This document shows, one piece after another, positions 1 to 4,095 of a DNA stretch of 4,095 bases. The translations under genes were made by a program, and so were the position numbers. This DNA comes from a virus (Duplodnaviria > Heunggongvirae > Uroviricota > Caudoviricetes). Position 1 is the first letter of the stretch. Each line of letters begins with the position of its first letter. The notes under the pieces were generated by a model. It was not told the origin of the DNA and searched no databases. It worked only from the letters and a program-made list of their open reading frames with translations. The DNA lies in the IMG/VR virus record IMGVR_UViG_2713896772_000025; one strand, written 5' to 3'.

Positions 1-1164
1 TTACGCCTTCTTTATATCCTCCATAATTCCAGAGTGGGACATATTTGGGACATTATCACCAAAAATGTCGTCTATTTTCCTCGCATGCTCTGTCAAATGA
101 TTAGGCGCAAGGTGAGCATACCTACGAACCATTTCTATGGACTCCCATCCGCCCATTTCCTGAAGCACTGATAATGGGACGCCTGACTGAATCAGCCAGC
201 TTGCCCAGGTGTGTCTGAGGTCATGGAAACGGAAATCTTCAATTCCTGCACGACGACAAGCTGATAGCCATGATGTCTTGCTGTCGATGCGCATCTTCCT
301 GACCGCAGGCGTTGATGTTCCATCTGCTCGCTTAGCCGCCTTGGTATGTACAAACACCCATTTGTGATGCTTGCCTATTTGATCACGCAACACTTTACAG
401 GCGGTATCGTTCAGCGCCACACCAATGGCGCGGTTTGATTTGCTCTCTTCTGGATTCACCCAGGCAACTCGTCGCTGCATGTCGATTTGTTGCCATTCCA
501 GATTTATGATGTTCGACTTTCTCAGACCAGTTGCCAGCGCAAACTTGACGACAGATTTCAGTGGTTCGGGGCACTCATCAATAAGGCGTTTTGCTTCCTC
601 CTTTTCCAGCCATCTGACTCGCTTGTTTCTGACCGCTGGTATCTTGATGACAGGCGCTTTTTCCAGCCACTTCCAGTCGCGTTCTGCAGCACGGAGAATG
701 GCCTTTATCATGGCAAGATGCTTTGCCTTTGTCTGAGTTGATACTGGCTTTGGTTCATAAACAGGCGGTTCTTTACCTTTCCTGATGGCGGCCTGAACTT
801 TCTGTTTCCATATTTCTTTCGTCTTTCTGTTATGCATTCTGCTTACAGCAGAGTAAATCTTTGCCTCCGAGATATCTTTAAGCCTTATACCCTCAAAATG
901 TTCAAGCCAGAACTCAATCCGGCTTTTATCTGAATCGAGAGATTTTTTATCAGCTTTTTCCTCAAGCCATCTTAGGCAGGCCTCTTCAAAAGTGACATCA
1001 GGTAAATCCCCTAGCTTTTCTACTCGCCAGAGTTCTGCTTTTCGCTTGTCGTGCAACTCCTGAGCTTGCCGCTTGTCCTTTGTGCCAAGAGATTCCTTAA
1101 TTCGTTTCCCGCCCGGGAGCGAATACGAGGCATACCATATTTCATTTCTGCGGAAGAGTGACAT
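1..1164 (-). CDS. int: Phage tyrosine integrase (site-specific recombinase, P22 Int-like), 387 aa
   Basis: ATG at 1164-1162 with upstream SD-like AGAGGAAAG; TAA stop at 3-1. C-terminal catalytic region has the HDLRHTWAS (box II HxLRHT) motif and the tyrosine in MVRRYAHL. N-terminus [31 protein letters not shown] resembles P22-family integrases as recalled. Position at the prophage end next to xis fits. Confidence 0.93.
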
Positions 1165-1391
1165 TTTCTTTCCTCTGTTATGCCATCACCCGCGCTCACC
1201 TGGACAGTATGCAGCGGAGACTGAAGCGCCGCAATGCAGGCTTGCCGTGTTGTGAGGTAAGGAGATTTTGGCTTGGTTGGATCTTTACGTGTTGCCTGTA
1301 GGCGGCCTGTTCGTATCCAGTTGGTGGCGGTTGGTCTGGATATCTTAAGAAACTGACAGGCCTCATCGAGTGTGAGGCTGTATGATTCCAT
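1020..1391 (-). CDS. xis: Excisionase / recombination directionality factor, 123 aa from ATG at 1391
   Basis: ATG 1391-1389 preceded by GAGGT; N-terminus [31 protein letters not shown] is a typical Xis/AlpA-like helix-turn-helix; TAG stop at 1022-1020. Lies immediately upstream of int and overlaps it. The track start at 1421 is a GTG 10 codons upstream without a good SD, so ATG 1391 is preferred. Confidence 0.8.
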
Positions 1392-1641
1392 GGTTACCTC
1401 TGCTTTTTGAACGCATGTCACGTAACTTCTTAATGTGTTCTGCCGTTTCGATCTCTTCTGCTATCCGATCTGCATCAGCTTTATTCACAGGTTCAAAGTC
1501 ATGATTAAAGCGGAACATGCTGGCGATACATGTTCTGCCTTTTCGGATGTAGTGAACTTTGTTGTGGGTAGAACGCAGGATTTTGCAGGGAGTGCCGTGG
1601 TGGTCGACGTACCAGGTGTTAGGAAAAATGATTCTGAACAT
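1363..1641 (-). CDS. Hypothetical small phage protein, 92 aa, Cys/His-rich (possible zinc-binding; occupies the position of lambda Ea8.5)
   Basis: ATG 1641-1639 preceded by GAGGTG at good spacing; TGA stop at 1365-1363. Contains a C-x6-H-x3-H-x7-C pattern (CKILRSTHNKVHYIRKGRTC). Sequence is protein-like and same strand as the operon; the overlapping plus-strand ORF 1435..1668 is Cys/Phe-rich and not protein-like. Confidence 0.65.
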   Translation of the reverse strand: MFRIIFPNTWYVDHHGTPCKILRSTHNKVHYIRKGRTCIASMFRFNHDFEPVNKADADRIAEEIETAEHIKKLRDMRSKSRGNHGIIQPHTR

Positions 1642-1688
1642 TTTTACACCTCAGTTGGACGATGTTGAAATTTGCTGCTTTGAGGCCA

Positions 1689-1907
1689 TCACAGTCCCCA
1701 TTGTTTGTTCTTAAGTTCGATCTCCTCCTGGCAACTTGCACAAGTCCGACAACCCTGAACAGCCAGGCGTCTTCGCTCATCTATCGGATCGCCACACTCA
1801 CAACAATGAGTTGCGGATACAGTCTGGTAGTTCTGACGACGCATTTTTATTGCTGTATTGCGCTGTAATTCTTCGATTTCTGATGCTGAATCAATGATGT
1901 CTGCCAT
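1689..1907 (-). CDS. TraR/DksA-family C4 zinc-finger protein, 72 aa (lambda Orf73-like)
   Basis: ATG at 1907-1905. Two CxxC pairs 14 residues apart (C35/C38 and C53/C56, plus extra Cys 36 and 59) in a ~70 aa protein, the hallmark of TraR-like RNA polymerase secondary-channel binders. Matches in size and architecture F-plasmid TraR (73 aa) as recalled. Confidence 0.82.
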   Translation of the reverse strand: MADIIDSASEIEELQRNTAIKMRRQNYQTVSATHCCECGDPIDERRRLAVQGCRTCASCQEEIELKNKQWGL

Positions 1908-1959
1908 CTTCCATTAATCCCTGAATTGTTGGTTAATACGCTTGAGGATGAATGCGAAC

Positions 1960-1986
1960 AATAAAAAAGGAGCCTGTAGCTCCCTG
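1960..1986 (-). terminator. Putative Rho-independent terminator (minus strand)
   Basis: Minus-strand RNA reads GGAGC-UACAG-GCUCC (plus 1983-1969), extendable by A-U and G-U pairs, followed directly by UUUUUUAUU (plus 1968-1960). It sits in the 98-nt intergenic space just downstream of the stop at 2006 and upstream of the TraR-like gene. Confidence 0.45.
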
Positions 1987-2005
1987 ATGATTTTGCTTTT
2001 CATGT

Positions 2006-2287
2006 TCACCGTTCCTTAAAGACGCCGTTTAACATGCCGATCGCCAGGCTTAAATGAGTCGGTGTGAATCCCATCAGCGTTACCGTTTCGCGGTGCTTCT
2101 TTAGTACGCTACGGCAAATGTCATCGACGTTTTTATCCGGAAAATGCTGTCTGGCTTTTTTGATTTCAGAATTAGCCTGACGGGCAATGCTGCGAAGGGC
2201 GTTTTCTTGCTGAGGTGTCATTGAACAAGCCCCATGTCGGCAAGCATAAGCACACAGAATATGAAGCCCGCTGCCAGAAAAATGCAT
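2006..2287 (-). CDS. Hypothetical small phage protein of the exo-xis region (93 aa from ATG 2287; 71 aa if started at ATG 2221)
   Basis: Minus-strand ORF with TGA stop at 2008-2006, same orientation and tight spacing (10 nt) after the upstream 63-aa gene. Neither start has a strong SD. First 22 residues (MHFSGSGLHILCAYACRHGACS) look less protein-like than the rest, so the shorter form is possible. Confidence 0.55.
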   Translation of the reverse strand: MHFSGSGLHILCAYACRHGACSMTPQQENALRSIARQANSEIKKARQHFPDKNVDDICRSVLKKHRETVTLMGFTPTHLSLAIGMLNGVFKER

Positions 2288-2297
2288 TCAGTGGTTG

Positions 2298-2489
2298 TCA
2301 TACCTGGTCTCTCTCATCTGCTTCTGCTTTCGCCACCATCATTTCCAGCTTTTGTGAAAGGGATGTGGCTAACGTATGAAATTCTTCGTCTGTTTCTACT
2401 GGTATTGGCACAAACCTGACTCCAATTTGAGCAAGGCTATGTGCCATCTCAATACTCGTTCTTAACTCAACAGGAGATGCTTTGTGCAT
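2298..2489 (-). CDS. orf63: Small exo-xis region protein, 63 aa (lambda Orf63-like)
   Basis: ATG 2489-2487 preceded by a strong SD (GGGAGG). 192 nt long and overlapping the upstream 60-aa gene by 28 nt, which matches the lambda orf63/orf60a arrangement as I recall it. TGA stop at 2300-2298. Confidence 0.75.
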   Translation of the reverse strand: MHKASPVELRTSIEMAHSLAQIGVRFVPIPVETDEEFHTLATSLSQKLEMMVAKAEADERDQV

Positions 2490-2644
2490 ACCGCCTCCCG
2501 TTTATTATTTATCTTCTCAGCCAGCCGCTGTGCTTTCAGTGGATTTCTGATAACAGAAAGGCCGGGAAATACCCAGCCTCGCTTTGTAACGGAGTAGACG
2601 AAAGTGATCGCGCCTACCCGGATATTATCGTGAGGATGCGTCAT
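2462..2644 (-). CDS. orf60a: Small exo-xis region protein, 60 aa (lambda Orf60a-like)
   Basis: ATG 2644-2642 has a GGGGAG SD about 8 nt upstream and overlaps the exo stop as ATGA. The track start at 2650 is only 2 nt from the SD, so it is disfavoured. 183 nt length and ATGA coupling to exo match the lambda arrangement as recalled. Confidence 0.75.
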   Translation of the reverse strand: MTHPHDNIRVGAITFVYSVTKRGWVFPGLSVIRNPLKAQRLAEKINNKREAVCTKHLLLS

Positions 2645-3212
2645 CGCCATTGCTCCCCAAATACAAAACCAATTTCAGCCNNNNNNNNNNNNNNNNNAAG
2701 TACCAGGCATCTTTTCGCGTCACCCACATGCTGTACTGCACCTGGGCCATGTAAGCCGATTTTATTGCCTCGAAACCACCGAGCCGGAATTTCATGAAAT
2801 CCCGGGAGGTAAACGGGCATTTCAGTTCAAGGCCGTTGCCGTCACTGCATAAACCATCGGGAGAGCAGGCGGTGCGCATACTTTCGTCGCGATAGATGAT
2901 CGGGGATTCAGTAATATTCACGCCGGAAGTGAATTCAAACAGGGTTCTGGCGTCGTTCTCGTACTGTTTTCCCCAGGCCAGCGCCTTAGCATTAACTTCC
3001 GGAGCCACACCGGTGCAAACCTCAGCCAGCAGGGTGTGGAAGTAGGACATTTTCATGTCAGGCCACTTCTTTCCTGAGCGGGGCTTTGCTATCACGTTGT
3101 GAACTTCTGAAGCGGTGATGACGCCGAGCCGTAATTTGTGCCATGCATCATCCCCCTGTTCGACAGCTCTCACGTCGATCCCGGTACGCTGCAGGATAAT
3201 GTCCGGTATCAT
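2641..3212 (-). CDS. exo: Lambda-type 5'-3' exonuclease (Red alpha), interrupted by a 17-N run; N-terminal 171 codons and C-terminal 12 codons present
   Basis: ATG 3212-3210 overlaps the bet stop as ATGA. N-terminal part [40 protein letters not shown]... closely matches lambda Exo as recalled. After the gap the true frame reads [12 protein letters not shown]-stop (2679-2641), matching the lambda Exo C-terminus. The track tail [17 protein letters not shown] is a frame artefact from reading through the Ns. Confidence 0.88.
2681..2697. other. Run of 17 N (unresolved or masked sequence / assembly gap) inside exo
   Basis: Directly visible as n characters. Flanking exo reading frames are offset in a way 17 nt cannot reconcile. 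Confidence 0.99.
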
Positions 3213-3994
3213 GCTGCCACCTTCTGCTCAGTGGCTTTCTGTTTCAGGAATCCAAGAGCTTTCACTGCTTCGGCCTGTGTCAGTTCTGACGATGCGCGAA
3301 TGTCGCGGCGAAATATCTGGGAACAGAGCGGCAATAAGTCGTCATCCCATGTTTTATCCAGGGCGATCAGCAGAGTGTTAATCTCCTGCATGGTTTCATC
3401 GTTAACCGGAGTGATGTCGCGTTCTGGCTGACGTTCTGCAGTGTATGCAGTATTTTCGACAATGCGCTCGGCTTCATCCTTGTCATAGATACCAGCAAAT
3501 CCGAAGGCCAGACGGGCACACTGAATCATGGCTTTATGCCGTAACATCCGTTTGGGATGCGACTGCCACGGCCCCGTGATTTCTCTGCCTTCGCGGGTTT
3601 TGAATGGTTCGCGGCGGCATTCATCCATCCATTCGGTAACGCAGATCGGATGATTACGGTCCTTGCGGTAAATCCGGCATGTACAGGATTCATTGTCCTG
3701 CTCAAAGTCCATGCCATCAAACTGCTGGTTTTCATTGATGATGCGGGACCAGCCATCAACGCCCACCACCGGAACAATGCCGTTCTGCTTATCAGGGAAG
3801 GCGTAAATTTCTTTCGTCCACGGATTAAGGCCGTACTGGTTGGCGACGATCAACAATGCGATGAACTGCGCATCGCTGGCATCACCTTTAAATGCCGTCT
3901 GGCGAAGAGTGGTGATCAGTTCCTGTGGGTCGACAGAATCCATGCCGACACGTTCAGCCAGCTTCCCTGCCAGCGTTGCGAGTGCTGTACTCAT
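3209..3994 (-). CDS. bet: Lambda Bet (Red beta) single-strand annealing protein, 261 aa
   Basis: ATG at 3994-3992, TGA at 3211-3209. Sequence [66 protein letters not shown]... matches lambda Bet as recalled along its full length. Canonical gam-bet-exo order with a 5-nt gam-bet spacer and 4-nt bet-exo overlap. Confidence 0.95.
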
Positions 3995-3999
3995 CCGTT

Positions 4000-4095
4000 T
4001 TATACCTCTGAATCAATATCAACCTGGTGGTGAGCAATGGTTTCAACCATGTACCGGATGTGTTCTGCCATGCGCTCCTGAAACTCAACATCGTC
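4000..4095 (-). CDS. gam: Lambda Gam (RecBCD inhibitor), C-terminal 31 codons plus stop; 5' end lies beyond the window
   Basis: Minus-strand translation from 4095 gives [31 protein letters not shown] then TAA (4002-4000), matching the lambda Gam C-terminus as recalled. Located 5 nt upstream of the bet start. Confidence 0.85.

Follow-up and report, generated by a model that had tools for sequence, protein, structure and literature searches.

The question raised by this DNA is whether P22-type integration genes are truly joined in it to lambda-type Red and exo-xis genes, as a sequence-only reading had proposed, and what kind of element carries the junction. The window, i.e. the whole stretch of 4,095 nucleotides that was analysed (IMG/VR virus record IMGVR_UViG_2713896772_000025), is almost certainly the intact left arm, from int to gam, of an Escherichia coli DLP12-type lambdoid prophage or temperate phage. 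The mosaic is real and has been known for long; the arrangement is neither new nor rare, and what the window holds is ordinary lambdoid cassette mosaicism. None of the analyses run here on the window and its relatives gave a result contradicting the explanation as a DLP12-type left arm. All genes described lie on the minus strand, and the features are as follows.

1 to 1164, minus strand: int, tyrosine integrase of the IntD/DLP12 type and P22 family, 387 aa, probably argU-specific (ORF, Pfam and alignments)
1020 to 1391, minus strand: xis, P22-type long excisionase, 123 aa (identity to P22 and SfI, HTH_17, PHROG 2907)
1363 to 1641, minus strand: 92-aa DUF4222 ORF (Pfam DUF4222, E = 1.9e-19; PHROG 285, unknown function)
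1391 to 1412, no strand: module boundary 1, where the int/xis cassette ends on the right, at the start codon of xis (where homology ends or starts in phages)
1689 to 1907, minus strand: orf73-type TraR/DksA-like zinc-finger protein, 72 aa (Pfam zf-dskA_traR; PHROG 54)
1712, no strand: module boundary 2, left-hand end of the lambda homology (blastn and ungapped comparison)
2006 to 2221, minus strand: full-length orf61-type ORF, 71 aa from MTPQQ, or 93 aa if the start is at 2287 (PHROG 303)
2298 to 2489, minus strand: orf63 (DUF1382), 63 aa (Pfam DUF1382, E = 7.7e-31; 94% aa identity to lambda)
2462 to 2644, minus strand: orf60a (DUF1317), 60 aa (Pfam DUF1317, E = 2.5e-38; 97% aa identity to lambda)
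2641 to 3212, minus strand: exo, lambda exonuclease, interrupted by 17 N (Pfam YqaJ)
3209 to 3994, minus strand: bet, Red beta of the RecT family, 261 aa (Pfam RecT; 99.6% aa identity to lambda Bet)
4000 to 4095, minus strand: 3' end of gam, last 31 codons and stop (DNA identity to the lambda gam CDS)

The integrase carries a Pfam Phage_integrase match over residues 184-355 (E = 5.5e-47). Its amino acid identity is 71% with P22 Int, 73% with SfI Int and 24% with lambda Int, and Int and P22 Int are collinear proteins of 387 aa each; the protein thus belongs to the P22 family, as had been supposed, and does not align best to lambda Int. When the protein is aligned with the lambda, P22 and SfI integrases, residues R215, K242, H314, R317 and Y349 do not vary, while W340 (in GGWES) is common to P22 and SfI, lambda having a histidine at that position. 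Similarly, the long excisionase is of the P22 type, as had been claimed, sharing 78% of its residues with P22 Xis and 81% with that of SfI. It shows an N-terminal helix-turn-helix (Pfam HTH_17) and matches the PHROG 2907 excisionase profile over its full length (residues 1-116 of the 117-position profile), and its diverged C-terminus makes it 7 aa longer than P22 Xis (123 versus 116 aa). The xis gene overlaps the 5' end of int by 145 nt, the corresponding overlap in P22 being 124 nt. P22 also has its attP directly downstream of int, as here, but it differs in its DNA (73% identity), in its target (thrW versus argU) and in its neighbouring genes, which are eaC and other ea genes, erf, arf and abc rather than Red. 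A search near xis/int for lambda CII-type sites (TTGCN6TTGC, at most one mismatch) gave 2 matches against 6.7 expected, none of them near xis. Homology and the isolation of near-identical phages as free particles suggest that Int and Xis are functional, and excision would be carried out by Xis together with Int, as in the biology of lambda, P22 and DLP12.

A tRNA-linked site of the P22 type, rather than lambda attB, had been predicted for this integrase, and such a site lies just beyond the window. In the lysogens E2865 and K-12, the end of argU (tRNA-Arg UCU, anticodon TCT) is 15 bp away from the stop codon of int at window position 1. Loci 100% identical to the window are located between argU and the remainder of a lambdoid prophage, and in an identical locus RefSeq labels the gene intD, adjoining tRNA-Arg. 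These loci place attP immediately after int, a short way beyond the window. The free phage Turner is identical to the lysogens over a 47-nt 3' part of argU and unrelated to them upstream of it. Because attP contains this part, integration would fall within argU and rebuild the tRNA. Lindsey and colleagues reportedly described in 1989 a P22-like integrase of DLP12 at argU. The K-12 DLP12 feature begins inside argU, the order being fimZ, argU, int, and the argU site beside fimZ, together with the intD-type int/xis genes, places the window in the DLP12 lineage. In the literature, DLP12 is integrated in argU, and the argU-specific epsilon34 Int has the DLP12 Int as its nearest relative and differs by about 30% from the P22-like thrW integrases (PMC2629481, citing Lindsey et al. 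1989); the far end of DLP12 carries a 47-bp argU repeat (PMC6379469). The prophage position in many genomes and the DLP12 and epsilon34 literature suggest that Int would catalyse both integration and excision at argU, and its specificity for argU is likewise probable from the biology of lambda, P22 and DLP12. A 'tRNA-Pro' in the deposited Turner record was rejected, as ARAGORN gave no tRNA on the Turner locus; the feature is the argU fragment of attP.

At the other end of the window, the proposed likeness of Bet, Exo, the Gam tail and the overlapping 60- and 63-aa ORFs to lambda was confirmed by amino acid identities of 94-99.6% and, for the gam tail, by DNA (4001-4095) that is 100% identical to lambda within the gam CDS. 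A Red module is recognizable from the gene order gam-bet-exo and from two of the products, an annealase of the RecT family and an exonuclease of the YqaJ fold; gam is present only as its last 31 codons. The conserved exo-xis block of lambda and Stx phages consists of orf60a, orf63, orf61, orf73 and ea22, and in lambda Orf73 is a TraR-like factor and Orf61 is truncated (PMC8614690). The first four of these genes occur in order in the window, with 86-98% amino acid identity to the lambda frames (86% for the orf73-type protein). In orf61, a run of A7 in lambda stands where the window has A6, so the lambda gene is frameshifted. For the 93-aa ORF at 2006-2287 the most likely start is 2221, which yields a protein of 71 aa, and RefSeq has this 216-nt form; orf60a is also present in RefSeq at equivalent coordinates. 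By the lambda paradigm, the genes from orf73 to gam would be transcribed leftwards from pL. The order orf73-orf61-orf63-orf60a-exo-bet-gam is that of lambda, which differs from the window in having ea22, ea8.5, orf55, a 72-aa Xis, a 356-aa Int and an attP for the gal-bio site.

The window contains a run of 17 N at 2681-2697, which stands for 126 bp of exo; these bases are hidden in the window itself and were read from collinear complete genomes and phage records. For this reason the true exo extends over 2641-3212, and a 195-aa 'exo' ORF was discarded because the N run had produced it. In the identical prophage of E2865 the complete Exo has 226 aa and is 98% identical to lambda Exo. The N run is also the one feature that might point to an assembly or scaffolding artefact joining two unrelated contigs, an explanation that is scarcely conceivable. 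The run is part of exo, and both junctions are about 1 kb to its left; the sequence on either side of it is collinear with that of complete genomes and of phage records, and the 126 bp that fill it are ordinary exo sequence. Further, closed chromosomes carry the junction region at 1300-1750 without a break and at 100% identity. An artefact is refuted by this collinearity with closed genomes.

With the mosaic accepted as genuine, DNA identity profiles along the window show where its parts meet. Identity to lambda is 96-98% over 1712-4095 (in blastn, window 1712-2680 matches lambda 30418-31387 at 96%), and there is none to the left of 1712, where an ungapped comparison loses it abruptly. This boundary is within the TraR-like gene, 23 nt from its 3' end, and the lambda homology stops directly at the start of lambda ea22. 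Identity to P22 is 73% over 34-1408, with nothing to the right of 1408, and identity to K-12 DLP12 is 99.8% over 1-1259. The profiles and the protein identities agree that P22-type int/xis genes are joined to lambda-type Red and exo-xis genes, as first proposed. A single breakpoint had been expected between about 1390 and 1700; a boundary does lie there, at 1391-1412, but there are two, and the second, at 1712, falls just outside that interval. The segment of about 300 bp between them is of neither lambda nor P22. The window can thus be divided into three exchangeable blocks, an integration cassette (1-1391), a small ORF (about 1412-1711) and a lambda-type block (1712-4095), whose junctions arose when lambdoid phages recombined at the borders of genes or close to them, as is usual in the modular evolution of these phages.

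Comparisons with other phages, in which junction positions were sampled from only about ten records, place the first boundary more closely. Kati, PhiR49_1 and PhiR29_1/2 have the same int/xis genes at 99.2-99.5% and a different early region, and their homology ends exactly at 1391; P22-like homology ends at 1397-1408. Conversely, the same DUF4222/exo-xis/Red block occurs with a 380-aa Int in Lambda_4C10 (junction at 1412), with a 434-aa Int in IdasGreatGrand (junction at 1356) and with a true lambda attP-int-xis, at 97.8%, in PhiR70_1 (junction at 1329), where 21 codons of the DLP12-type xis are left, fused to lambda xis. The Kati-type, PhiR70_1 and IdasGreatGrand comparisons argue against the idea that int/xis and Red diverged together with no exchange.

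That the exchange was a recent and unique one, a cross between P22 (or a P22-like Salmonella phage) and lambda caught in this genome, would fit the family assignments of both halves, but it is extremely unlikely. In the int/xis DNA, identity reaches only 73% with P22 and 74-79% with other P22-like Salmonella phages; the cassette is an old relative, of the IntD/DLP12 type, and not a recent import from P22. Moreover, E. coli genomes with the identical arrangement number in the hundreds, several phages isolated independently of one another have it too, and K-12 DLP12 is a deleted remnant of it. A recent cross is refuted by this low identity together with the wide distribution. Of 5,426 complete E. 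coli genomes, 653 contain 80% or more of the window and 1,245 contain 80% or more of its positions 1-1700; E. coli genomes with a match to the window number roughly 4,600. The window is 100% identical to argU prophages in many E. coli, including O26 and O103, and in nine phage records 80% or more of it is matched at 98.6-99.8% identity. Over the whole window, Turner (PP925837), PhiR34_1 (PV340559), 2G7b (NC_049954) and ev243 (NC_049955) are 98.7-99.8% identical, with the same gene order and junctions and with point differences alone. Uniform high identity to a single phage, which the sequence-only reading had set against a mosaic, is therefore literally found (in Turner, 2G7b and ev243, and in hundreds of prophages), but all of these carry the same mosaic; since they share it, the junction is not absent but old, fixed and widespread.

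The middle block replaces genes that are familiar from lambda. Between xis and the TraR-like gene there is only the 92-aa DUF4222 ORF, the last 13 or so codons of which lie on the int/xis side of the first boundary, whereas lambda has in the same interval a 55-aa ORF (orf55), ea8.5 and ea22. The earlier observation that an ea22-sized gene is missing and that a single ORF separates xis from the TraR-like gene was therefore accurate, both ea22 and ea8.5 being absent. The exo-xis block of the window lacks the ea22 that should follow orf73, and ea22 is accordingly not a universal member of this "conserved" block. In tblastn searches, the DUF4222 protein found no match in lambda 27000-34000 or in P22, and is 98% identical in SfI and, over 79 aa, 96% identical in Lambda_4C10.

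The same architecture as in the window is seen in SfI, with P22-type int/xis, DUF4222, orf73, an orf61-like ORF, exo, bet and gam. In 100-bp bins its DNA is 96-100% identical to the window at about 1300-2200 and from 2500 rightwards. It differs in its Int (73%), in the DNA to the left of about 1300 (60-90%) and in the orf63 region, where other ORFs stand instead. Its attP core carries the annotation of the SfII/SfV/SfX type, which is probably the thrW type.

The absence of ea22 and ea8.5 might also be read as a deletion scar, rather than a different module, in a decayed cryptic remnant like K-12 DLP12. The K-12 prophage (intD, xisD' and exoD' at argU) has indeed suffered large deletions in this very region. 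Its match to 1-1259 consists of intD and a 5'-truncated xisD, and its exoD' fragment is 100% identical to window 2615-2811. It thus joins window 1259 to 2615 and lacks 1260-2614 (the xis start, DUF4222, orf73, orf61, orf63 and orf60a) as well as everything to the right of 2811 (most of exo, bet and gam). The lack of an intact xis in the RefSeq annotation would also suit a remnant. However, every ORF of the window is intact, the 123-aa Xis with its full-length excisionase match among them; the same sequence is carried by free phages that form plaques or were induced (Turner, PhiR34_1, 2G7b and ev243); and the DUF4222 ORF, which belongs to Pfam and PHROG families, is a real and conserved gene rather than a leftover of ea22. 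The deletion-scar reading is highly unlikely and was rejected on these three grounds. As the intact form, the DLP12-type left arm in the window shows the ancestor of the K-12 DLP12 left end and the positions of the K-12 deletions.

The window is thus a case of textbook lambdoid modular evolution, in which a tRNA-targeting integration cassette of the P22 family stands on a lambda-type early-left operon, and its significance beyond correct annotation is small. In this respect xis is of some use as an example. The intact gene is not annotated here by RefSeq and was also missed in the deposited annotations of Turner, PhiR34_1, 2G7b and ev243, so that a 123-aa excisionase of a very common prophage type escapes current automatic annotation.

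Two further proposals are speculative and rather unlikely. The DUF4222 protein, encoded at the place of the pro-lysogenic ea22 (and ea8.5) of lambda and the Stx phages, may functionally replace it and, in DLP12-type phages, tune excision or the choice between lysis and lysogeny. Independently of this, the clustering of junctions in some 85 bp surrounding the start codon of xis (1329, 1356, 1391, about 1400 and 1412) may reflect a recombination-prone or selected boundary rather than the chance survival of functional hybrids.

A scan of the whole window against Rfam (E of at most 1) gave no match, and a sigma-70 promoter scan of 1-2300 found none. Terminator-like hairpins in 1-2300 numbered five, not clearly above the 2.6 +/- 1.7 expected from shuffled sequence. 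One of them, at 1985-1967 on the minus strand, is in an intergenic position; the other four are not.

The window consists of three blocks with sharply different relatives, and the boundaries between them lie at or near gene ends. Every gene is carried on the minus strand, as follows.

1-1164, minus strand: int, 387 aa, Phage_integrase domain
1020-1391, minus strand: xis, 123 aa, HTH_17 at the N-terminus, matched full-length by PHROG 2907 (excisionase), overlapping int by 145 nt
1363-1641, minus strand: DUF4222 ORF of unknown function, 92 aa
1689-1907, minus strand: TraR/DksA-type zinc-finger ORF (lambda 'orf73' type), 72 aa
2006-2221, minus strand: orf61-type ORF, 71 aa (93 aa with a start at 2287)
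2298-2489, minus strand: orf63, DUF1382
2462-2644, minus strand: orf60a, DUF1317
2641-3212, minus strand: exo, YqaJ domain
3209-3994, minus strand: bet, RecT family
4000-4095, minus strand: tail of gam, stop codon and last 31 codons

The integrase belongs to the P22 family rather than to the lambda type, sharing 71% identity with the P22 protein, 73% with that of SfI and 24% with that of lambda; the catalytic residues (R, K, H, R, Y) are conserved in an alignment with these three proteins. For the long excisionase the corresponding figures are 78% (P22 Xis) and 81% (SfI Xis). A tblastn search of lambda positions 27000-34000 gave no match to Int or Xis, and among the window proteins searched by tblastn, P22 was matched by these two only. 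The Red and exo-xis genes are lambda-like (tblastn amino acid identities of 86% for Orf73, 94% for Orf63, 97% for Orf60a, 98% for Exo and 99.6% for Bet), and DNA identity to lambda is 96-98% from 1712 through 4095. The lambda orf73 frame is separated from xis by ea22, ea8.5 and a 55-aa ORF; in the window the DUF4222 ORF alone fills this interval, and its protein gave no tblastn match in lambda 27000-34000 or in P22. The missing ea22 is the sole departure from the exo-xis gene scheme reviewed in PMC8614690. Family identities, lambda interval and gene content therefore agree with the sequence-only reading, which had described P22-type int/xis joined to a lambda-type module without an ea22-sized gene.

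That reading had also proposed a single breakpoint at about 1390-1700. Identity profiles per 100 bp and ungapped junction alignments did reveal a boundary near the xis start codon (1391-1412), but a second boundary was found at 1712. Homology to P22 extends from 34 to about 1400-1408 at 73% DNA identity. The same int/xis recurs at 99.2-99.5% in phages Kati, PhiR49_1 and PhiR29_1/2, with homology ending exactly at 1391, beyond which Kati has an unrelated early region lacking Red genes. Position 1391 is likewise the end of the cassette in Stx phages 75/02 and POCJ13, at 81% identity. From the right, homology at 97.5-97.9% begins at 1412 in Lambda_4C10, whose integrase is a different one (380 aa), and in at least 17 further phage records, while the match to IdasGreatGrand (integrase of 434 aa) begins at 1356. 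In PhiR70_1 (PV340577), the match to the backbone typical of DLP12, the cryptic prophage of E. coli K-12 at argU, begins at 1329; to its left, within 1-1455 of the phage locus, stands attP-int-xis of true lambda type (97.8% identity to lambda). The xis reading frame here opens with 21 codons of the DLP12-type (P22-type) gene and continues in frame as lambda xis; this fusion, annotated as a 110-aa 'excisionase', is a footprint of a cassette swap. The int/xis cassette of the window occurs with more than one backbone, and its backbone with at least four different int/xis cassettes.

The second boundary falls within the TraR-like gene, 23 nt from its 3' end; homology to lambda itself starts at this point, which on the lambda side adjoins the ea22 start. 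The intervening segment of about 300 bp, holding the DUF4222 ORF, comes from neither lambda nor P22 and is common to SfI, Lambda_4C10 and many others. This ORF is 92 aa long in the window and SfI, versus 79-80 aa in Lambda_4C10-type phages; roughly its last 13 codons fall left of the first boundary, on the side of int/xis (1363-1412), and share 29 nt with the start of xis. The mosaic observation is confirmed and its interpretation supported. By analogy with lambda, P22 and DLP12, the junctions would have arisen by recombination among co-resident lambdoid phages or prophages, surviving hybrids being those that keep whole genes.

The arrangement is already known and very common. Prophages of O26, O103 and other E. 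coli match the entire window at 100% identity, and isolated phages Turner, PhiR34_1, 2G7b, PhiR68_2, ev243 and PhiR26_1 are 98.6-99.8% identical to it. Of 5,426 complete E. coli genomes, 653 contain at least 80% of the window and 1,245 at least 80% of positions 1-1700. This wide distribution, together with a P22 DNA identity of just 73%, excludes a recent cross between P22 and lambda. A deletion scar in a decayed prophage is also unlikely, as every window ORF is intact and near-identical phages are viable. The DLP12 genes intD/xisD of K-12 are 99.8% identical to 1-1259. Immediately after position 1259 the K-12 sequence resumes at 2615, the two matches overlapping by 2 nt, and its exoD' fragment reaches no further than 2811 (2573-2878 of the K-12 locus). 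Judged by sequence, these joins mark the pseudogenes xisD and exoD as deletion remnants of exactly the window's arrangement, with the window as the undeleted progenitor state. The 1989 paper of Lindsey, Mullin and Walker reportedly already noted the similarity of DLP12 int/xis to those of P22.

The exo reading frame is broken by 17 N (2681-2697), which stand for 126 bp of the exo 3' region (6681-6806 of the E. coli E2865 prophage locus), ordinary exo sequence in every related sequence. The 195-aa 'exo' ORF is thus an artefact of this run, beyond which window coordinates lag 109 bp behind the natural sequence. An assembly artefact as the origin of the junctions is excluded: the window is collinear with closed genomes, and the run lies about 1 kb away.

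The prediction of a P22-type, tRNA-linked integration site was borne out. The window begins at the int stop codon, with the att site just outside. The 100% identical E2865 prophage is flanked on this side by fimZ followed by tRNA-Arg (anticodon TCT, argU), whose end lies 15 bp from the int stop codon; the K-12 layout is the same, the DLP12 feature beginning inside argU. Over the final 47 nt of argU (anticodon loop to CCA end) and the 15-nt spacer, free phage Turner is identical to the two lysogens, and upstream it is unrelated to either. This is the classic P22-type layout, in which the phage holds the tRNA 3' part and rebuilds the tRNA gene upon integration; the target is argU here and thrW in P22. 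Previously, argU has been given as the DLP12 integration site (PMC2629481, citing Lindsey, Mullin and Walker 1989, J Bacteriol 171:6197), with a 47-bp argU repeat marking the other prophage end (PMC6379469). The argU-specific epsilon34 Int has its closest relative in the DLP12 integrase, and thrW-specific P22-type integrases differ from epsilon34 Int by about 30% (PMC2629481). From the biology of lambda, P22 and DLP12, Int would be expected to recombine the argU-derived attP core with argU, Xis with Int would direct excision, and pL would drive the exo-xis and Red genes early in infection.

Several annotations in related records deserve comment. The 'tRNA-Pro' beside int in the Turner locus (2902-2985) is no tRNA by ARAGORN; its 3' 47 nt are the argU (tRNA-Arg UCU) 3' part, the attP core. 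The Kati record likewise has a 'tRNA-Pro' beside int (3402-3485 of its locus). In RefSeq genomes the intact 123-aa P22-type xis is left unannotated, with only a 22-codon 'helix-turn-helix, incomplete' pseudogene shown (5326-5391 of the E2865 locus), an omission that probably extends to over a thousand genomes. The Turner and Kati records also leave xis unannotated and instead call a 56-aa ORF read in a different frame (window 1196-1366; 4196-4366 of the Turner locus).

A terminator-like hairpin (1967-1985, minus strand; 8-bp stem and T run) lies between the orf61-type and TraR-like genes, overlapped by a 29-aa ORF (1914-2003) that is annotated in some phage records and 97% conserved in lambda. 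A 27-aa hydrophobic ORF (MTTTECIFLAAGFIFCVLMLADMGLVQ, 2218-2301), for which no PHROG match was found, overlaps the orf63 stop with its start in an ATGA and, with its stop, the MTPQQ start of the 71-aa ORF (2221) in another. These two overlaps suggest a translationally coupled chain of orf63, the 27-aa ORF and the 71-aa ORF, with 2221 as the true orf61-type start. At about 2150-2160 reference lambda has A7 versus A6 in the window, so that the 71/93-aa ORF is frameshifted in lambda, giving orf61 (61 aa).
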